64,000 nucleotides of DNA from Escherichia coli 042 (GCF_000027125.1 NC_017626.1); one strand, 5' to 3'; counted from the stretch's first letter, positions 2,786 to 59,330 are shown. The notes: generated by a model not told the origin, from the sequence alone. Numbers and translations: made by a program.

Positions 2786-2795
2786 AATTGAAGTC

Positions 2796-2812
2796 TTAAG
2801 GTTCACTTAATC
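2796..2812 (+). promoter_or_regulatory. PmrA (BasR) box CTTAAG-N5-CTTAAT upstream of pmrR
   Basis: Direct hexamer repeat CTTAAGgttcaCTTAAT 44 bp upstream of the pmrR ATG; matches the PmrA box consensus. Confidence 0.6.
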
Positions 2813-2855
2813 TCTGACGCGCATACTCTCCTCCAGGTTAACGGAGGAGAGTGCA

Positions 2856-2945
2856 ATGAAAAACCGTGTTTATGAAAGTTTAACTACCGTGTTCAGCGTG
2901 CTGGTGGTCAGCAGCTTTCTTTATATCTGGTTTGCCACGTACTGA
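2856..2945 (+). CDS. pmrR: PmrR 29-aa membrane peptide (MKNRVYESLTTVFSVLVVSSFLYIWFATY)
   Basis: Short ORF below the ORF-track cutoff, recognised by sequence. Its 3' end overlaps the 3' end of convergent basS by 25 nt. Confidence 0.85.
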   Translation: MKNRVYESLTTVFSVLVVSSFLYIWFATY

Positions 2946-4012
2946 TCTTTCTTCAGCCGTACCCAGGCCCGCGTGCCGGAAGTCTCTTGCCGGTTTTGCA
3001 GGAAAAACTGCCCGTGATGCAACTGTGTAATGCGGCTGACAATACTTAACCCCAGACCAATCCCGCCATAACGGCTGTCCATACGTACAAACGCTTTACT
3101 CAACTCCCCGCATTTACTCTCATCAATACCCGGTCCTTCATCTTCAACGGCCATGACCGCTCCGCCATCTTCTTGCAGCTTAATCATAATGTTGCTGCCT
3201 TGCGGGCTGTAACGATGGGCGTTTTCTACCAGGTTTCGCAATAACATCCGCAGCAGGGTTGCATCACCTTGAACGGTGATGTCGGCGGCGCTCTCTGGCA
3301 ATAGCAGGGTTTGCTGTCGCTGGTCGAGCATGGTACTGAGTTCGTCATACGAGGGGAGAATGACATCTTCCAGCAGTTTTACATGTTGATAATTACCGGA
3401 AGAAAATGACTGTCCGGCACGCGCCAGTTGCAGCAGCTGGGAGACACTCTCCATCATCTGATCAAGCCGTGCCACTAACGGTGCTACATCAATGTGATGC
3501 GTTTTCGCCAGCAGTTCCAGATGCAAACGCACCCCCGCCAGTGGCGTTCGCAGTTCGTGCGCGACGTCAGCGGTAAACAACCTTTCGTTATCCAGCGTGC
3601 TGGTCAGGCGACTGACCAGATCGTTCAACGCCGAAACCACCGCTTCGATTTCGAGGGTGGCGCTGTGAATGGCAATAGGCGTTAAGTTGTCGGCGGTGCG
3701 CGCTTCCAGCTCTTTTTGCAGCTCCGCCAGCGGCCGGGTGATGCGGCGTACCGCCTGATAGCAGATAAATAGCGTCAGGCTGACCATAAAGACGCCGGGG
3801 ACGATCAGGCTGGCGACCGCCTCGCGGATCTCACGCATGATGTGGCGATCGTTGTTGCGATTGTCGCGTAGCGCCTGCTCAAACAGCTGAATCTGCTCGG
3901 TACTTTCATGCCATAGCCAGAAGACGCTGATCAGCTCAAACACCAACAAAATGGCCCCAATGGTCAATATCAGCCGTTGGCGCAGCGATATTGGTCGGCG
4001 CAGAAAACGCAT
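2921..4012 (-). CDS. basS: Sensor histidine kinase BasS/PmrB (363 aa from MRFLRRPISL)
   Basis: Protein recognised; ATG at 4010-4012 gives 363 aa. The ORF-track start at 4021 is a TTG extension. Confidence 0.95.
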   Translation of the reverse strand: MRFLRRPISLRQRLILTIGAILLVFELISVFWLWHESTEQIQLFEQALRDNRNNDRHIMREIREAVASLIVPGVFMVSLTLFICYQAVRRITRPLAELQKELEARTADNLTPIAIHSATLEIEAVVSALNDLVSRLTSTLDNERLFTADVAHELRTPLAGVRLHLELLAKTHHIDVAPLVARLDQMMESVSQLLQLARAGQSFSSGNYQHVKLLEDVILPSYDELSTMLDQRQQTLLLPESAADITVQGDATLLRMLLRNLVENAHRYSPQGSNIMIKLQEDGGAVMAVEDEGPGIDESKCGELSKAFVRMDSRYGGIGLGLSIVSRITQLHHGQFFLQNRQETSGTRAWVRLKKDQYVANQI

Positions 4013-9004: not shown

Positions 9005-11272
9005 TTACGCTTTCACACACATAACGTGGTAAATACCGTCAATAATTTCTGTCCCTTCTGTTTCGTGTTCAAATCCAGGGAAATGATGGTCCCAGGATTG
9101 CAGCGAGCGTAAATAACTTACTTGCGGACTGTTTTTATCGCCGAAGTTTTCACCAGACAGCAGCATCGGGATTCCTGGCGGATACGGGATAACTGAGTTT
9201 GCCGCGATGCGTCCTGGCAGATTTTCAATGGATACCAGTTCGACATTGTTGTCGACAATCGCGTTGTACGCTTCACGCGGGGTGATTTCCGCCACCGGCA
9301 GGCCGGAATAGGCTTCGTTCAACCGTGCGCCAGGGTTGTTTTCTTTCAGCCAGGCAAACATGGTGTCACCCAGATCGTGAATCCCCATGTTCGCGTAAGT
9401 GTCAGGATATTGTTCAACAAGTTCCGGCATCACCTGCGCCAGCGGTGTGTTGGCGTCATAGTGGCGTTTGAAGGAGCAAAGGGTGTTAACCAGAGTCCCC
9501 CATTTCCCACGGGTTATGCCCATAGAGAACAGGAACATGATTTGGAAGTCAGTGGTGCGGGTAGGCACAATGCCGTGGCGACCAAGCCAGGCAGTGACCA
9601 GCGCCGCCGGAACACCGGTTTCTTCCAGTTCACCATCTTCACCCATTCCCGGAGCAAGGATGCTGACTTTAATCGGGTCGAGCATACTCCAGTTATCCGG
9701 AATATCTTTGAAGCCGTGCCAGCTTTCGCCCGGATGCATGACCCAGCAGTCCTGAACGGTGGTCAGCAGTTTGGTTGGTGCGTCAGCAAAGTCATAGGTT
9801 TTGCCGGTTTGTGGGTCGGTGACGACTTCTTTGTTCCACGGTTTGAAGAACCAGCTACCGTCAGCGGTGAACTCTTTATACAGCCGCGCCATCGCCTGAC
9901 GGAAATCAACCGCTTCGTCGATCACTTCCTGGGTCAGTGACAGGCCGCTGTTGCCGTCCATCATCGACACTGCCACGTCGTTGGATGCACAGATGGCATA
10001 CAGCGGGGAGGTGGTGGCATGCATCATGTAGGCCTGGTTGAAGCGGGAGAAGTTAATCGCCCCACGACCTTCACGTACATGAATATAAGAGGCCTGTGAC
10101 AGTGCATTCAGTAGTTTGTGGGTGGAGTGGGTGGCGAAAACGGTAGGACCGTTGTGATCGCCAGGTTCGCCGCGCATGGCATAGTGATCGGCATAGATCG
10201 GGTTGAAACGTGCATAGCCGTACCAGGCTTCGTCAAAGTGCAGACGATCGGAGGTTTTTTCCAGCAGATCCTGCGCTTCTTTAGCGTTATAACACACGCC
10301 GTCATAGGTACAGTTGGTCACTACGCAGTAAGACGGTTTTTGCCCGGCTTTGTCTTTAGTCAGCGGGCTTTCACTGATTTTCTTCTGCAAGGTTTCAGGT
10401 TGCATTTCCTGCGGATAGATTGGCCCGATAATGCCGTAGCGGTTGCGGCTTGGCACCATGTAGACCGGTTTCGCGCCCGTCAGCATCAAGCCTTGTTCGA
10501 TGGATTTATGGCAGTTACGGTCAACGACCACGACATCGTTATCGGTCATGCAAGCCTGCATGATGGTGCGGTTAGAGCCGGAAGTACCGACGACTACCGA
10601 CCAGGAGCGATCGGCACCAAATACGCGTGCGGCATATTTTTCGCTTTCGCCAAATGCGCCAGTATGGTCAAGCAAAGAACCGAGGGAAGTTCGTTCGATG
10701 CCCATGTCGGTGCGGAACAGATTTTCACCATAGAAGTCATGGTAGAAACGTCCGGCGGGTGTTTTGGTAAAACCAACGCCACCCTGGTGGCCTGGCGCTG
10801 CCCAGGAATATTCATGGATGTCGCTATATTTCATCAGCGCGCTGAACAGTGGCGGCAACAGTTGCTGGCGGTAGCGGGTCATCGCGGCAACGGCGCGTCC
10901 GGCGATAAAGTCGGCGGTATCTTCCAGAATCCAGGCGAATTCATCGACAAGCTCCAGCAGATCCCGGTCCATTGCGGCGAGGGCTTTTTCCCGATCGCCC
11001 AACAGGAAGACCGGCACGTTTTGTTGGCGCTCATGAAGCTTACCGATCAATTGTCTGACGTTTTGATGTTCGTCCGGATGTTCCATTTGATAGCTGAACA
11101 TCAGGCAGTCAATGGCTTCGTTTGAAGAGAGAATGGCAAAACCATCATCAAAGGAGGTGGATTTAATCACGGTAACATTTTGCTGGCTTAAAGCATCTGC
11201 CAGACGCTCAACGGCGTTACCGACCCAGGTGTCTTGATGGAGAAACTCGCTTTCAACAATTAATACTTTCAT
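9005..11272 (-). CDS. adiA: Biodegradative arginine decarboxylase AdiA (755 aa from MKVLIVES)
   Basis: PLP-dependent Orn/Lys/Arg decarboxylase. The ORF has two N-terminal Met (756 aa). Confidence 0.95.
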   Translation of the reverse strand: MKVLIVESEFLHQDTWVGNAVERLADALSQQNVTVIKSTSFDDGFAILSSNEAIDCLMFSYQMEHPDEHQNVRQLIGKLHERQQNVPVFLLGDREKALAAMDRDLLELVDEFAWILEDTADFIAGRAVAAMTRYRQQLLPPLFSALMKYSDIHEYSWAAPGHQGGVGFTKTPAGRFYHDFYGENLFRTDMGIERTSLGSLLDHTGAFGESEKYAARVFGADRSWSVVVGTSGSNRTIMQACMTDNDVVVVDRNCHKSIEQGLMLTGAKPVYMVPSRNRYGIIGPIYPQEMQPETLQKKISESPLTKDKAGQKPSYCVVTNCTYDGVCYNAKEAQDLLEKTSDRLHFDEAWYGYARFNPIYADHYAMRGEPGDHNGPTVFATHSTHKLLNALSQASYIHVREGRGAINFSRFNQAYMMHATTSPLYAICASNDVAVSMMDGNSGLSLTQEVIDEAVDFRQAMARLYKEFTADGSWFFKPWNKEVVTDPQTGKTYDFADAPTKLLTTVQDCWVMHPGESWHGFKDIPDNWSMLDPIKVSILAPGMGEDGELEETGVPAALVTAWLGRHGIVPTRTTDFQIMFLFSMGITRGKWGTLVNTLCSFKRHYDANTPLAQVMPELVEQYPDTYANMGIHDLGDTMFAWLKENNPGARLNEAYSGLPVAEITPREAYNAIVDNNVELVSIENLPGRIAANSVIPYPPGIPMLLSGENFGDKNSPQVSYLRSLQSWDHHFPGFEHETEGTEIIDGIYHVMCVKA

Positions 11273-39992: not shown

Positions 39993-42900
39993 TCAGAAGG
40001 TCACATTCAGCGTGGCCTGACTGTTATAACCTTCAGCGCTGCTGCCGCTGACGCTGTGGGCATAACCGGCCTGAACGCCCAGGGTGATATTTTCCCGGAC
40101 ACGGGCTTCCAGTCCGGCCTGCAGATCCAGTGAAGTGCCATTCTGTGAGGGAGAGAACGTCATCCCGCTGCCTGCGGTGGAGGTCCCCACACGCATATCA
40201 CCCCGGGAGCTGAAGGTGCGGATAACGGAAGGCTGTACCCACCAGTTCACCGGCAGTTCACGCACACTGTGTTTTGCACTGTCACGCAGGGGGGCACGGG
40301 ATGAGGTGCCTTCACCAAAGGTCATATCGTTGTGGCTGCCCAGACGGAAACCGGCACGCACATGTTGTGCACTGCCATGCCCGAACTTCACATAACCGGC
40401 GTTGTCCTTACCGTCATCCAGCGAAAGCCCCTGCCAGGTGTACTGCAGCCGTGGCTCCAGCATCAGGTTGTCAGTAATACTGAAGGGCAGACCGGTTTCC
40501 AGTGAGCCCAGCCAGCCCCAGCCCCGTGCGCGGAAGTCGTTATTGCCCGATGACGCTTTCATACTGTGGCGGGTTCCCTGTGCCACAATGTCAGCCCACA
40601 GGCCGGAGGAGGTGTGTGTCAGGTTCATATATCCGCCCAGGCTGCCGGCATCATCCCGGACCGTGCCGGCGCGGGAGCCGTCATCATCCTTAACATCAAC
40701 GGAAGAATGGCCTGCAGCACCATACACTCCTGTCGTCAGTGACATACCGGCGACCTCTGTTCTGAGCAGGTCACCCTCCAGACGGACGAAGCCATAGCTG
40801 CCGCTGCTTTCCGGCGTGGCCCCACGGGCAATACCGCCGTTGTTATCGTGACCGAGATGGCCGCCCTGAATGCTGAGACGGACGCTGTTATTTTCACCGT
40901 TTACACCGGTCTGATGGCTGCGTGAGCCTGCCAGAATCCGGTCATAGTCCATTGCCTGTGTCAGCATGGAGGCGTACAGGGGGACTTCAGCACGATAACG
41001 TTCTTCACTGCGCAGATACCAGCTCTCATCACTGTCCCGGTTGAGGGTGTAGTTAAAGGCCCCGGCCTGCAGCATATTCCCCTGGACAAAAGCCCCTTCC
41101 TCCGTGGTGGCACCGTTAATGGCCTCAACCACCTGAATACCCTTACCGGTGGTCGCCAGCCCCGTACCACTGTTGCCGGCGTTCACCAGATTCAGGATGG
41201 TTTTTCCGGTTGCCCTGCCACCGTCAATGACCAGTCTGTCAGCATTGTTCTGCGCCATATCCGGGCGTACACGCAGGCTGATGGTGCCATTCTGCCCGTT
41301 CAGGTTTTTCACCTGCAGGGTTGCCGGTACGAACTTCCCTGTGCGGGTGGAGGTGAAATGAATCTGTCCGGCATGGCTGAGGTCATCCACCACCGACTGC
41401 ACCGTGGCGTTATCAGGGATATTCCAGGTGGCACCGGATGTCAGGGTGACATTCGTGGGGTCAATGGCACCGTTCAGCACTGTGCTGCCGGTCAGCTTCA
41501 GGGCCGTGCCGCGCTGAGCGATGACATCCGTGGTGACGGTACTGTCGTTCAGCGTCAGCGTGCCTTCATTCAGGTTGACGGTTTTCTGGGTGAGTGTGGT
41601 GTTGCTGACAGTGAGTGTGCCACTTCCTGATTTTTCCACCCTGCCGTTACCGGTAAGAGCGCCTCCCTGCAGGAGTGCATCACCTTCACGGATGGTCAGG
41701 GTATCGTTATTCACCGTTTTCCCGGAAAGGGTAAGCGTGGCACCGTTATTCAGCGTGGTGGTGCCCGCCAGCGAGCCCCCTCTGGCAGTGAACAGTCCGC
41801 CATTTACCGTGGTATCCGTGGCCGTATCACCGGCGTTCAGCGTGAATGAACTGCCTTTTTCCAGCATCAGGGCATCCGCCTGACCGCCCCCGATACGGAA
41901 TGCCGTTCCGTCGCTCCGGGTACCACTGACAGCGGCCCCGGAATCGGCCAGCAGTACACCGCCATTCCCCATGGATACGGTGGTGGCGGCACCACCGTTG
42001 CGGACATCCAGCGTTCCGCCATCATCCACACGGGTATTAGTGGCTGTGTGTCCGCTCAGCACATCCAGACGTCCGCCATTTTCCAGTACGACATTATCAG
42101 CCTTACCCGCCAGAACGGAGAATGCTCCCAGGCGGTTTGTGCCGGTGACGGTTGCAGCTGTGCTGGTAACCAGTGCACCTCCCGTGTTCTGGGTGACATC
42201 AGACGCTTTACCGCCGGCATTCACCTGCAGCTTTCCTTTCTGGTTGATGGTGGTATGCGCGGTAGTTCCTCCTTCCTTAATCACCTGCCAGCCCCCCTCG
42301 TTAATTACCGTGTTCAGCGCAAGTCCGTATTTGTGCACATACTGGTTTCCTCCCTCCAGCCGGGTGTTATGTGCCTCGCCGTGTACCGTCTGGTCACCGC
42401 CGGCGTAAATGAGGGTGTCCCGTGCCATCCCCGAAGACCAGATAACCTGCCGGCCATTTTTGTTGATGGTGGTGGATTCAGCCGTCCCTCCGACCATCTG
42501 ACCGCTGGACACATTTTCAGACTCCGGACCACCTTCTGCACCGGTGTTGACGATGGTTCCGGTTGCCTGCCCGCCATGTTTAATGGTCTGGTAGCCAGAC
42601 TGGTTAATCACCGTTCCGGATGCACTGCCGCCTGCATGTATCCATTGTTCACCACCGTTAAGGACAGTACCGTAAGCCTGCCCGCGCAGATTCTGTCCTC
42701 CACCGGCACTGATAACCGTATCCGTGGCACTGCCACCTGCCATGACATCCTGCAGACCGTTTGCGGTGACCGTGGTGTTTCTGGCAGTGCCACCCCGGGC
42801 TATCTGCTGACCGCCGGTGTTGTCATCAGAGTCCGGCCCCAGCTCAAGCCCGGTACTGACAGTCACGCCATCAGCTGTTCCGGATACAAACTGGTTGTCA

Positions 42901-43112
42901 TGGTTTACCAGTGTTCCGCCATTCACTGTTTCACCCGGGTGCACAACGATGTCAGCAGCCAGCACCGGGAGTGACGTGACTGCGGCAAGAGACAGTGCAA
43001 CCGCCACACCGCCACGTTTACCCCGTGCGCGGGCCAGTTCGGAGGCAACCACGAAAGCGCCCGTAATGTGATTCCATACCAGCCTGTAGCAGGTATTCAG
43101 ATGTCGTTTCAT
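39993..43112 (-). CDS. flu: Antigen 43 (Ag43/Flu) self-associating autotransporter adhesin (1039 aa from MKRHLNTCYRLVWNH)
   Basis: Signal peptide, repetitive beta-helix passenger and C-terminal beta-barrel; ATG at 43110-43112. Confidence 0.92.
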   Translation of the reverse strand: MKRHLNTCYRLVWNHITGAFVVASELARARGKRGGVAVALSLAAVTSLPVLAADIVVHPGETVNGGTLVNHDNQFVSGTADGVTVSTGLELGPDSDDNTGGQQIARGGTARNTTVTANGLQDVMAGGSATDTVISAGGGQNLRGQAYGTVLNGGEQWIHAGGSASGTVINQSGYQTIKHGGQATGTIVNTGAEGGPESENVSSGQMVGGTAESTTINKNGRQVIWSSGMARDTLIYAGGDQTVHGEAHNTRLEGGNQYVHKYGLALNTVINEGGWQVIKEGGTTAHTTINQKGKLQVNAGGKASDVTQNTGGALVTSTAATVTGTNRLGAFSVLAGKADNVVLENGGRLDVLSGHTATNTRVDDGGTLDVRNGGAATTVSMGNGGVLLADSGAAVSGTRSDGTAFRIGGGQADALMLEKGSSFTLNAGDTATDTTVNGGLFTARGGSLAGTTTLNNGATLTLSGKTVNNDTLTIREGDALLQGGALTGNGRVEKSGSGTLTVSNTTLTQKTVNLNEGTLTLNDSTVTTDVIAQRGTALKLTGSTVLNGAIDPTNVTLTSGATWNIPDNATVQSVVDDLSHAGQIHFTSTRTGKFVPATLQVKNLNGQNGTISLRVRPDMAQNNADRLVIDGGRATGKTILNLVNAGNSGTGLATTGKGIQVVEAINGATTEEGAFVQGNMLQAGAFNYTLNRDSDESWYLRSEERYRAEVPLYASMLTQAMDYDRILAGSRSHQTGVNGENNSVRLSIQGGHLGHDNNGGIARGATPESSGSYGFVRLEGDLLRTEVAGMSLTTGVYGAAGHSSVDVKDDDGSRAGTVRDDAGSLGGYMNLTHTSSGLWADIVAQGTRHSMKASSGNNDFRARGWGWLGSLETGLPFSITDNLMLEPRLQYTWQGLSLDDGKDNAGYVKFGHGSAQHVRAGFRLGSHNDMTFGEGTSSRAPLRDSAKHSVRELPVNWWVQPSVIRTFSSRGDMRVGTSTAGSGMTFSPSQNGTSLDLQAGLEARVRENITLGVQAGYAHSVSGSSAEGYNSQATLNVTF

Positions 43113-43304
43113 CAGCATTTCCTTAATCAGAGTGAGGGTGAATAAAAAAGCCGGTATCCACAGATGTGGATACCGGCAGGTAAAGGGTTACAGTGCCGGA
43201 GGTCCGGCTGACGGAAGTTTCTGACGTGTGGCTCTGTTGTTCCCTGAATCTCATGTCTGTGTGTATCTGCGCACGTTGCTAACAGGAGTTATTATTAGCA
43301 TGAC

Positions 43305-43340
43305 GATCGATATAAACGATCGATAAAATAGGTATCGATC
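43305..43340. promoter_or_regulatory. agn43 phase-variation switch: three GATC Dam sites (43305, 43318, 43337) in the OxyR-binding region
   Basis: ACGATCGATATAAACGATCGATAAAATAGGTATCGATCG about 200 bp upstream of the agn43 ATG. Confidence 0.7.
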
Positions 43341-43445
43341 GTTTTATTCTATTATCAGGCTATTGCACGGACAAGAGAGACAGTAACGAAAACAGCGCTT
43401 TTGTGAGCAGACTCAGAGGCAGGGAGGACATCATCCACAACAGGT

Positions 43446-46941: not shown

Positions 46942-47541
46942 TCAACAGGCGTATAACAGGTACTCGTCAATCATCAGTTCAAGCTCGCGCTTTTCCCGTT
47001 TGCGCGCCACAGCCCAGCTTTCAAGTTCTGCGTGTGATTTATGCTTTAACTCTTCAGTCCAGGGCTGCATGGAGTGGGCGCACATCAGATCATACCAGCA
47101 CAGCCATATCAGGGTGTGGTAGAGATCGCGATCGTCAAAACGCCGGAGCAGACTGTTCAGCCTGTTTGCCAGTCGGCTTTCTCCCAGACGATGTAGTTCA
47201 CTGAGTAAAACACCACCCAGGTTAAAATGTGTAAGTAACATGATTTCATGAGTCTGAATGCTGGTCATTAACCCTTCCTGAATGGCAGGAATGAACGGTG
47301 GCGTTGCCGGGTTGACTACCTGATAGAGTCCCTGTGGTGCCACCGAGATGATGGTGCCTTTTTCCGGCAGAAAAAAGTGGGCCAGGGTCAGGCGATGATA
47401 ACCATGAAGATGCGGAGAGCCCATTCCGTGAGCGACAATAAACCGGGTTACACTTGCCATCCATTTCTGATGCTGGGTGAGCAGCAGATCACACCGGTTT
47501 TCAAGTTTTTGCATAATATTCTCTCCTTTAGCACGCAGCAA
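46942..47541 (-). CDS. Hypothetical protein (199 aa) downstream of alpA
   Basis: ORF in an operon-like position after alpA; no family recognised. Confidence 0.45.
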   Translation of the reverse strand: MLRAKGENIMQKLENRCDLLLTQHQKWMASVTRFIVAHGMGSPHLHGYHRLTLAHFFLPEKGTIISVAPQGLYQVVNPATPPFIPAIQEGLMTSIQTHEIMLLTHFNLGGVLLSELHRLGESRLANRLNSLLRRFDDRDLYHTLIWLCWYDLMCAHSMQPWTEELKHKSHAELESWAVARKREKRELELMIDEYLLYAC

Positions 47542-51135: not shown

Positions 51136-51795
51136 TTGTCAGCTGAATCTTTATACGGAATGCTCTTCAGTATGCGTACACAAATTGACTATCTGGCGGA
51201 TAAATACTGTTTTACAGAACGGAACGAATCGCCCCGTCTTCGCCAGCAGTGGCAGGATGTTCTGGAGGAGTGCCGGCAGACAGAGGCCGGGCCAGAAGAA
51301 CGGCTGCGTATTGCACTGCTGAATGTGGATTACGTCACCAGTTTTGAACTGCCTTTTCGCTTGTTGCTTACCCGTACACCACAACTGATTGCTGCGCTGC
51401 GTGAAGAATGGGGAATCAGCCAGAAAAATGTGGTGTTTAACGATAAACGGTTTGGCTGCGTGTACAGCCTGAAGGCCAGCCTTTCTGGTGTGCCGGATAC
51501 ATTCCGGTATCATCTGTCTCATCGTATTCGTCGCGTGGTTGGGAATGAAAACACATCATTGCCATATCAGCAGGTTGCCCGGGAAGTGAAAGCGCCCCGT
51601 GAACGGCTGAAGTATGCACTGGAGGCGGGTTTACTGGTGACTGCACTGGACGGCCTGTTCTGGTTTGGCAGTCAGCGTATTGCGGCTGATGTTCTGAGGC
51701 TGAGAAAGGCCGGAATGCCGGTGGTGACCACGACCGTGGAGGTGCACGATAACCTGACAGGAACAACCCGCAAAGTACCGGCATACCATCTCTGA
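51136..51795 (+). CDS. Hypothetical protein (219 aa)
   Basis: Long ORF with typical coding composition; no family recognised. Confidence 0.45.
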   Translation: MSAESLYGMLFSMRTQIDYLADKYCFTERNESPRLRQQWQDVLEECRQTEAGPEERLRIALLNVDYVTSFELPFRLLLTRTPQLIAALREEWGISQKNVVFNDKRFGCVYSLKASLSGVPDTFRYHLSHRIRRVVGNENTSLPYQQVAREVKAPRERLKYALEAGLLVTALDGLFWFGSQRIAADVLRLRKAGMPVVTTTVEVHDNLTGTTRKVPAYHL

Positions 51796-51815: not shown

Positions 51816-52124
51816 TTGCTCTGGCAGCAGCAGTACGACATTCTTTATACTTTATCCCCGTGCCTGAAAACATGTGCTAAGGAAACGGGAATGGCAAGGT
51901 CCGATTACGATATTATCAATCTGTCTCTGGAACATGAACTGAATGAGTGGCTGGCAGAGAGAGGTTATGCCGGACTGGTGGATAACCGGAACCGCCTGGC
52001 AGAGGTGGTTACCCGGAAATTGCAGGACAGCTTTTATATCAACGTTTCCTGGGATGCGCTGAACACAGCATACAGTGAACACCCGGAGTGGTTTTCAGGG
52101 CTTGTCTCCGGGGATGAGAATTAA
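51816..52124 (+). CDS. Hypothetical protein (102 aa; alternative start at MARSDYD, 51891)
   Basis: ORF following the 219-aa gene on the same strand. Confidence 0.35.
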   Translation: MLWQQQYDILYTLSPCLKTCAKETGMARSDYDIINLSLEHELNEWLAERGYAGLVDNRNRLAEVVTRKLQDSFYINVSWDALNTAYSEHPEWFSGLVSGDEN

Positions 52125-52176
52125 TAAGTGGATTATGCTGCCATCAGGCAATGTGATTGCCGGCAGGGATTTCGTT

Positions 52177-52368
52177 TTATTCTGTTTCTTCCCGGGGTTC
52201 GGGTTTGAATTTTCCCAGGAAGTTGTACATCGGTCGCATGCAGGGATGCGGATAGCCGTCCCGCATAAACACCACCCGGGTTTCCTCAACACTGGTCACG
52301 GTGACAAGCGCACCATGATCGTCTCTGTATCGCTGATTGATTTTCGGTAATGGAATATCTTCTGACAT
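52177..52368 (-). CDS. Hypothetical small protein (63 aa)
   Basis: ORF with a plausible RBS; no family recognised. Confidence 0.3.
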   Translation of the reverse strand: MSEDIPLPKINQRYRDDHGALVTVTSVEETRVVFMRDGYPHPCMRPMYNFLGKFKPEPREETE

Positions 52369-52744
52369 AGATTTCAGAACGGTAACAGTTAACTAAATTT
52401 TCATGTGGTAGCACTGAATCAGGAGTCTCTGCCTCCTGATGTGTTTTGTTAATCTTCTGTTTTTACTAGAAATCCCCTCACTCCTTCTTTCATTGCATTT
52501 TGTTGGGCCCTTCCTCCATATCTTTCCCGCTTTCCAGAAATCACGTCAATGCTGCTGAAACTTTACTCATTGTGATTTTCAATGACTGAAATCAAGAAAA
52601 TACAGTGTTTATGTTAACTGGCTGTATCAAAAGTGTTTTGTGGAATAATTTTCTGTATTTTTACATTAACAATGGTTATAAGCTTTGAATATTCATTATT
52701 TTGCGACATTCCATAGAATAAAGTCCTGATTATTTGCATTATAT

Positions 52745-52797
52745 CGATCGATGTATCTGTTATATTGAGATTTTTCAGATCTTCGTCCTATAATGAT
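52745..52797 (+). promoter_or_regulatory. Putative T6SS (sci-1-like) promoter: -10 TATAAT (52788-52793), Fur-box-like ATAATGATCAAAATTA, three GATC sites (52745, 52777, 52794)
   Basis: AT-rich 470-bp region upstream of tssB; GATC overlaps the -10/Fur-like element. Confidence 0.5.
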
Positions 52798-52874
52798 CAA
52801 AATTAAATCAGTGCACAAGGGGAGGCATCTGCGGTGATGGAACCCCTGAGATGCAGGTTTCACAGGAGAGAGCC

Positions 52875-53372
52875 ATGAGCAGTTCGTTTCAGAATGAAAT
52901 CCCGAAAGCAAGGGTAAATCTGAAATTAGACCTACATACGGGTGGTGGGCAGAAGAAAGTGGAGCTTCCGCTCAAACTTCTGGTTGCCGGTGATTTCAGT
53001 AACGGACAGGAAGAGCGTCCACTGTCAGAGCGTGTAAAAACGGATATTAATAAAAACAATTTTAATGATGTTCTGGCAGATATCTCCCCGTCTGTACATC
53101 TGAATGTGGAGAACACGCTTGCCGGTGATGGCTCTGAAGAGAGCATCAGCCTGACTTTCCGCAATATGAACGATTTCACGCCAGAGCAGGTCGCCCGACA
53201 GATTCCCCGTCTTAAAGCCATGCTGGCCATGCGTAGCCTTCTGCGGGACCTGAAAGCCAATCTGCTGGATAACGTGACTTTCCGTAAAGAGCTGGAAAAA
53301 ATTCTGCGTGACCCGGCACTGAGTCAGACGCTGCGTGATGAACTGCGTGCACTGGTGCCGGAAAAGGCGTGA
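52875..53372 (+). CDS. tssB: T6SS contractile sheath small subunit TssB/VipA (165 aa from MSSSFQNEIPKARVNLKLDL)
   Basis: Conserved TssB sequence; RBS AGGAGAGAG 5 nt upstream. Confidence 0.92.
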   Translation: MSSSFQNEIPKARVNLKLDLHTGGGQKKVELPLKLLVAGDFSNGQEERPLSERVKTDINKNNFNDVLADISPSVHLNVENTLAGDGSEESISLTFRNMNDFTPEQVARQIPRLKAMLAMRSLLRDLKANLLDNVTFRKELEKILRDPALSQTLRDELRALVPEKA

Positions 53373-59171: not shown

Positions 59172-59330
59172 TTCTGCCGGACGGACAGGGCATCCTGTCC
59201 GTCATTTTTATTTTTTCTTCAGCATCTGTTGGCGGGTGCTGAAGAAAGAATTCTCAATCCTGAACACAGACCTGATGCGCCTGGGTTACGGCGAAGGGCG
59301 GTAGCGTGCCTGACGGTCTCCTGACAGTGA

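Follow-up and report, generated by a model that had tools for sequence, protein, structure and literature searches.

The intergenic region upstream of tssB in Escherichia coli 042: exact sequence matches to the Fur/Dam-controlled sci1 promoter, and relatives of its promoter cassette before a second cargo

Introduction

In Escherichia coli 042 the sci1 type VI secretion cluster opens with tssB, a gene preceded by an intergenic region in which three GATC sites are grouped around a -10 hexamer that overlaps a Fur-box-like sequence. The question raised by this locus is whether the arrangement is a genuine iron- and methylation-dependent switch or an accident of base composition. Here we report an analysis of the window, a stretch of 64,000 nucleotides of strain 042 (GCF_000027125.1, NC_017626.1), in which all positions are counted from the first letter of the stretch. 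[quoted passage not shown] This promoter is already fully known in experimental detail (2011, extended in 2020 and 2026) and the finding as given is not new. The only part of the analysis that may be new concerns a second cargo of the promoter cassette; it is absent from the Psci1 literature consulted, for which no targeted literature search was made.

Genomic setting

Core chromosome, from adiA to cadCBA, makes up the left part of the window. Positions 38369-64000 are colinear with E. coli 55989 at 99.86%. The 55989 annotation of this part lists, before tssB, agn43, a GTPase gene, hha, an ECs1377-family gene and a DUF4222 gene, and the last two belong to a conserved island backbone upstream of the promoter. 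No tRNA gene was found in the 64-kb window, and a core flank without a tRNA gene is consistent with the distal end of a pheU-inserted island; a pheU island is what we take to be the location of the sci clusters of strain 042.

Downstream of the promoter, tssB, tssC and tssK were detected by NCBIfam together with an OmpA-domain protein. Family matches combined with transfer of the 55989 annotation give the order tssB, tssC, tssK, tssL, OmpA-family, hcp, tssH (clpV), vgrG and Tle1-EAEC. The promoter accordingly stands directly upstream of tssB of sci1, the cluster that encodes Tle1-EAEC and Tli1.

Two further observations concern the contents of the window. EC042_4531 (61985-62560, plus strand) encodes 191 aa with an HExxH-like motif, FIHEMAHVW, and had no Pfam match, and it is followed by a gene for a DUF7480 lipoprotein (62554-63096), annotated in 55989 as a putative T6SS immunity protein; judged from these features, the two may form a metallopeptidase-type effector/immunity pair. 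In the core-chromosome part, the sRNA STnc630 was detected by Rfam at gathering score (2787-2952, plus strand).

Identification of the promoter

All six published oligonucleotide annealing sequences (Prom sci1-5 and -3, Promsci1-pT7-5 and -3, and the two Fur-box inserts; PMC3145626) are exact matches to the window and fall within 52298-52892 (Table 1). The sci1 promoter was cloned in that work from -578 to +18 relative to sciH (EC042_4524), as a 596-bp fragment given as nucleotides 4852298-4852892 of strain 042 (PMC3145626); these coordinates equal window positions 52298-52892 plus 4,800,000, which almost certainly places the window at 4,800,001-4,864,000 of the 042 chromosome. The published positions of the sites GATC-dis and GATC-III, -II and -I, and those of the PvuI/BspDI, BglII/Hpy188I and BclI sites, agree with the window to about 3 bp, as do the fragment sizes (Figure S1 of PMC3145626). 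The GATC triplet spans exactly 53 nt (52746-52798), as in PMC3145626, and GATC-III, GATC-II and GATC-I each lie inside the published palindrome (PvuI/BspDI, BglII/Hpy188I and BclI, respectively).

Oligonucleotides, restriction map, coordinates, the elements F1, F2 and G1-G3, the -10 hexamer and the downstream genes including Tle1-EAEC all agree with the accounts of Psci1 (PMC3145626; PMC13262931), and nothing in the sequence contradicts this explanation. There is no detectable difference between Psci1 and the window, strain 042 being the authors' coordinate reference for experiments that were done in strain 17-2; the 2011 methylation assays were carried out on a low-copy plasmid (PMC3145626). 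The identification is solid because it consists in exact identity with an experimentally dissected promoter and not in motif counts.

Table 1. Positions of promoter elements, published oligonucleotides, neighbouring genes and related sites, in window coordinates unless a locus is named
Feature	Position	Strand	Basis or remark
agn43	39993-43112	minus	annotated in 55989
agn43 regulatory region, GATC at 43305, 43318 and 43337	43305-43340	minus	in agn43 leader
ECs1377-family gene	51136-51795		NCBIfam NF052300
DUF4222 gene	52177-52368	minus	Pfam PF13973 on O157 homologue; 55989 annotation transferred at 99.86% identity
Promsci1-pT7-5, annealing part	52298-52320		exact match to window
Prom sci1-5	52309-52333		exact match to window
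GATC-dis, distal GATC of the published 596-bp fragment	52317-52320		inside DUF4222 coding sequence; Figure S1 of PMC3145626
Distal Fur-box insert AGTCCTGATTATTTGCATTATATCG, 25 nt	52722-52746		exact match to window
Distal Fur box fur2/F2, CCTGATTATTTGCATTATA	52725-52743	plus	within published insert match
GATC-III (G3), inside ATCGATCGAT (PvuI/BspDI)	52746-52749		upstream of -35
-35 hexamer TTGAGA	52765-52770	plus	consensus scan
GATC-II (G2), inside AGATCT (BglII), overlapping Hpy188I TCAGA	52778-52781		in -35/-10 spacer
Proximal Fur-box insert TCCTATAATGATCAAAATTAAATCAG	52786-52811		exact match to window
-10 hexamer TATAAT	52789-52794	plus	motif search, consensus scan
Proximal Fur box fur1/F1, TATAATGATCAAAATTAAA	52789-52807	plus	overlaps -10
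GATC-I (G1), inside BclI site TGATCA (52794-52799)	52795-52798		within F1
Predicted tssB 5' leader, about 74 nt, Shine-Dalgarno AGGAGA at 52864-52869	52801-52874	plus	start placed from -10
Prom sci1-3	52866-52892	minus	exact match to window
tssB (sciH, EC042_4524), first sci1 gene	52875-53372	plus	TIGR03358, E 1.4e-49; RefSeq annotation of 55989
RfaH ops1 element	59297-59308	plus	single exact match in window vs 0.09 expected
Candidate P4532 site ATTATTGCTGATCATTTTA, GATC at 62420	62411-62429	plus	12/19 to Fur consensus; inside EC042_4531 coding sequence
ops in alternative leader	L005 3003, L006 2998, L007 3003, L031 9169, L032 9174, L029 3691		

Promoter architecture

The intergenic gap between the divergent DUF4222 gene and the ATG of tssB measures 506 bp, and its GC content is low: 36.8% in 52400-52874 and 27% in 52560-52810, compared with 50.5% in the whole window. 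TTGAGA and TATAAT, separated by an 18-nt spacer, make up an 11/12 match to the sigma-70 consensus in our scan; both hexamers were termed putative in the original description, where the -35 came from a BProm prediction (PMC3145626). The proximal box F1 agrees with the Fur consensus GATAATGATAATCATTATC at 13/19 positions, the same count as was given for fur1, and the distal box F2 at 12/19 on the reverse strand in the scan made here, compared with 11/19 in PMC3145626. We found no mapped +1 for Psci1 in the published accounts of this promoter; we infer the exact transcription start (about 52801), the -35 assignment and the mode of action of G2 and G3.

An earlier note on this DNA, made from the sequence alone, had described an AT-rich region before tssB with a GATC overlapping a Fur-box-like -10, and had likened it to the Fur/Dam logic described for the sci1 promoter. 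The base composition and the position of GATC-I within F1 bear this out, and by the exact oligonucleotide matches the site is that very promoter. The Fur-box-like string quoted there, ATAATGATCAAAATTA, is located at 52790-52805. All the elements named are present, each of them one base further on than was stated (52788-52793 for TATAAT; 52745, 52777 and 52794 for the three GATC sites), and the distal Fur box F2 had been missed. The checks proposed at that time are largely published, namely FURTA and EMSA, lacZ reporters placed in fur and dam backgrounds, and the methylation state at each of the three GATC positions.

Elsewhere in the intergenic region, a terminator-like hairpin (ATCAGGAGTCTCTGCCTCCTGAT followed by a T-rich tail) is present at 52418-52450 on the plus strand as a consensus match only. 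The block is 86-93% conserved across diverged homologues, and such a hairpin could shield Psci1 against transcripts running on from the plus-strand backbone genes that lie upstream. The tssB leader gave no support for a structured RNA (fold z = -0.86; no Rfam match in 52000-53000).

Published experiments and proposed mechanism

Fur binding, competition with polymerase, protection from methylation, the effect of methylation on Fur and mutant phenotypes have all been published for this sequence. Derepression of a sci1-lacZ fusion was seen with transposon insertions in fur and with the iron chelator dipyridyl, Fur binds both boxes in a metal-dependent manner and the proximal one with higher affinity (FURTA, EMSA), and pre-bound Fur reduces the binding of RNA polymerase (PMC3145626). 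GATC-I is shielded from Dam by Fur in vitro and in vivo whereas GATC-II and GATC-III are not, GATC-III is methylated in vivo, GATC-I does acquire methylation when fur is mutated or dipyridyl is added, and the methylated proximal box binds Fur less (PMC3145626). In inducing medium about 60% of cells are ON and 40% OFF, in a reversible and heritable equilibrium (Taillefer et al. 2026, PMC13262931). Chromosomal point mutations in F1, F2, G1, G2 and G3 shift this ratio: the population is homogeneously ON when F2 is mutated and homogeneously OFF in G3 and triple-G mutants, and F2 is, along with G3, a key determinant (PMC13262931). Deleting 34 bp that include the -10 abolishes T6SS activity, and expression falls by half when A is changed to T at -13 (52862) (2025 preprint).

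According to the mechanism proposed, Fe-Fur would occupy F1, over the -10, and F2, upstream of the -35, when iron is plentiful. Bound Fur would exclude RNA polymerase and shield GATC-I (52795) from Dam, giving an OFF state in which GATC-I is unmethylated. When iron is scarce Fur would leave, RNA polymerase would transcribe tssB and the downstream genes, and Dam would methylate GATC-I; methylated GATC-I would lower the affinity of Fur for F1, and the ON state would therefore be stabilised. Return to OFF would take iron together with passage of a replication fork, which would leave GATC-I hemimethylated. Fur and Dam would compete in this way, F2 and G3 having the greatest influence of all the elements, and the outcome would be a heritable and reversible mixture of ON and OFF cells.

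Conservation and natural promoter variants

Among the records searched, the closest (55989, O104:H4 and others) are 99.6-99.8% identical to the window over the 507-bp intergenic region. In an alignment of homologues the most conserved 20-nt block of the cassette is 52789-52808, which holds the -10, F1 and G1 and reaches 97% against a mean of 80%. The -10 TATAAT is invariant in 10 of 10 aligned homologues and G3 is present in 9 of 10; nearly every sequence retains both G3 and G2, and the conservation of F2 and of the -35 is at or below the cassette average.

Several natural variants were seen. Position 52760, 5 nt upstream of the -35, is T in the window and C in 55989 and seven other homologues, E. 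albertii being gapped there; no other base in the 507-bp intergenic region differs from 55989. Strains 447, TUM12357 and C5 (L002-L004) carry an extra GATC (AAAGATCTG) that overlaps the 5' edge of F2, and strain C5 has in addition lost G1 (TGAGCA) with tssB still downstream. In E. albertii (L018) the -10/F1/G1 block and the tssB leader are kept and G3 is absent. Such variants are ready-made tests of the 2026 model, according to which promoter architecture tunes the ON/OFF ratio.

A contig scan for CTATAATGATCAAAATTAA returned 20 loci, five of which are true homologues (E. ruysiae, E. albertii, and Salmonella enterica twice in overlapping stretches). The remaining loci were rejected as scattered AT-rich chance matches in unrelated phyla.

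Alternative explanations and a shared cassette

AT-rich horizontally acquired regions are typically silenced by H-NS, and a Fur-like box and a GATC cluster could have arisen in such DNA by chance, with control exerted mainly by other means such as H-NS or RfaH. Motifs of this kind are not rare in the window, where 17 19-mers have at least 13/19 Fur matches, six clusters of three GATC sites fall within 53 nt (about 1.8 expected, P about 0.016), and 34 of the 193 GATC sites lie within a 19-mer of at least 11/19 Fur matches; several further 12/19 Fur-like 19-mers occur inside the AT-rich intergenic region itself. As independent evidence the motif counts are modest and weak. Other regulators are also on record, since ops1 is functional and RfaH/ops control of the same operon has been reported (preprint 10.1101/2025.02.08.637259), and other T6SS clusters of E. 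coli are said to be under H-NS control (2025 preprint). RfaH exerts its effect further downstream, however, at ops1, and a reporter placed upstream of that element does not respond to rfaH (preprint 10.1101/2025.02.08.637259). FURTA, EMSA, fur-mutant, dipyridyl and point-mutant data were obtained on exactly this sequence (PMC3145626; PMC13262931), and the -10/F1/G1 block and the three GATC sites are far better conserved than the surrounding cassette. A chance origin is consequently very improbable, and the region is read here as Psci1.

A different proposal, which complements the identification as Psci1 and does not compete with it, is that the cassette is a generic island-backbone promoter whose switch evolved for, or is tied mostly to, an RfaH-dependent ShlB-type two-partner-secretion or haemolysin-like operon, and that sci1 acquired it by recombination a short way downstream of the transcription start. 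A 507-bp intergenic query matched 1,378 of 5,426 complete E. coli genomes, only about 200 of them at 80% identity or more; in 1,177 records identity was about 77% and the match ended at query position 442 or 443, that is, at 52810-52811 of the window. In alignments, homology between T6SS-type and non-T6SS-type loci covers 52371-52811 at about 77% identity and stops about 17 nt after the -10, or about 10 nt after the predicted start. The 440-bp cassette so delimited holds F2, G3, the -35, G2, the -10 and F1/G1, and it always adjoins the backbone genes (ECs1377-family, hypothetical, DUF4222). Its junction with tssB was found by a junction-specific query in 163 of the 5,426 genomes (about 3%), as compared with 1,289 (about 24%), including O157 SpLE1-like islands, for an alternative leader. 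A consensus ops, GGCGGTAGCGTG (GGCGGTAGCATG in Salmonella), stands in the alternative leader 83-88 nt after the core-motif start in all six loci checked, and because of this ops the sequence implies that the cassette would drive a transcribed, RfaH-dependent operon there. The first gene behind the leader encodes a ShlB-type POTRA (TpsB) protein, of 348 aa and truncated in E. coli; Salmonella enterica strain s1 has a full-length 579-aa ShlB/FhaC transporter followed by an HlyC-type acyltransferase. On the other side, most of the POTRA genes in E. coli are truncated relics, for which reason the promoter may be conserved there through recency and not selection, the -35 of the non-T6SS-type cassette is TTGCTG instead of TTGAGA, and the comparison draws on about a dozen sequences inspected base by base. 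We consider this proposal evenly balanced between true and false.

The cassette loci were L005-L009, L031 and L032 in E. coli and L020 and L029 in Salmonella enterica s1. In O157 SpLE1-like islands the POTRA gene is followed by genes for an SF1-helicase-like protein, IbrA, IbrB and PerC. The 893-aa SF1-helicase-like neighbour resembles MkoA and MkoC, and PADLOC assigned the POTRA proteins to no defence-system family. In 55989 a 128-bp fragment of the POTRA gene, together with IbrA, IbrB and PerC, is found beyond the distal end of the T6SS cluster; for this reason the T6SS and TpsB arrangements are taken to share both flanks and to differ after the promoter.

Chimeric remnants were also observed. 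Beyond T6SS-1 in 55989 (L010, 11576-12943) an ImpA_N fragment, the 128-bp POTRA fragment and a VasL-domain ORF lie together, and in UPEC strains (L009, 20678-21498) the 5' part of the POTRA gene is fused to the 3' part of VasL. These remnants suggest that the TpsB locus has recombined repeatedly with the end of a T6SS cluster.

The end of homology near the predicted start suggests a possible capture of the promoter by recombination at the transcription start. That the Fur/Dam switch is a portable regulatory cassette of a tRNA-associated island family, and not an invention of the T6SS, is an idea that we put forward tentatively, judging it slightly more doubtful than probable.

Other Dam-dependent switches in the window

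The earlier note had counted two Dam-dependent switches about 9 kb apart, agn43 and the promoter of sci1. The distance stands, the agn43 GATC triplet being 9.4 kb from the sci1 GATC sites, and the count was too low: at least three published Dam-dependent switches (agn43, Psci1 and P4532) lie in the stretch. Four further GATC triplets were seen besides those of agn43 and Psci1, at 3803-3847, 10156-10196, 26410-26452 and 47088-47130.

The Rfam family IS102, the RNA of the agn43 leader, was detected at gathering score at 43137-43342 (minus strand) and covers the three agn43 GATC sites. OxyR/Dam phase variation of agn43 is well studied at the K-12 locus, and from homology to that locus we infer that the region here is probably the same kind of switch. 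Like Psci1, agn43 (flu) has three clustered GATC sites over a repressor site, mutual exclusion of repressor and Dam, and heritable states. It differs from Psci1 in that the repressor is OxyR and not Fur, the leader, downstream of the promoter, holds the sites, and switching is stochastic, without gating by an environmental signal such as iron. In pap (Lrp/Dam) and in Salmonella opvAB, gtr and std (OxyR or HdfR with Dam), competition between a regulator and Dam at promoter GATC sites likewise gives rise to ON and OFF lineages; their regulators and geometry differ from those of Psci1, in that they rely on pairs of a distal and a proximal site with alternative occupancy, and none of them is known to use Fur or iron.

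P4532 is an internal promoter of sci1, described in the passage of PMC13262931 that cites Brunet, Bernard and Cascales (J Bacteriol 2020) as having, like Psci1 in the same window, a Fur box that overlaps a Dam site and the -10. Its probable site, as placed from the sequence, is 62411-62429, 134 nt upstream of the start of EC042_4532 (62554), and this is the only GATC-bearing Fur-like 19-mer in the 420 nt upstream of 62554. The candidate differs from Psci1 in lying within the coding sequence of EC042_4531, in having one relevant GATC, and in its weaker consensus, with a 12/19 Fur match and no sigma-70 match in the consensus scan of 62411-62429.

Conclusions

The region upstream of tssB in strain 042 serves as a positive control, in which a reading made from sequence only recognised a real and experimentally validated epigenetic switch; the exact sequence is a textbook case of the interplay of Fur and Dam. 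For every E. coli genome that has the cassette before tssB, about eight have it before an ops-containing ShlB-type operon. If it works alike there, it would place a second and far commoner cargo under iron-gated, methylation-heritable ON/OFF control, and if promoter capture is true, the sci1 T6SS would have gained its epigenetic control in that way. A functional cassette at these loci would point to undermethylated GATC sites and iron-dependent heterogeneity at the locus in O157 and many other lineages, and would show that an epigenetic switch, as a promoter module, can pass from one cargo to another.
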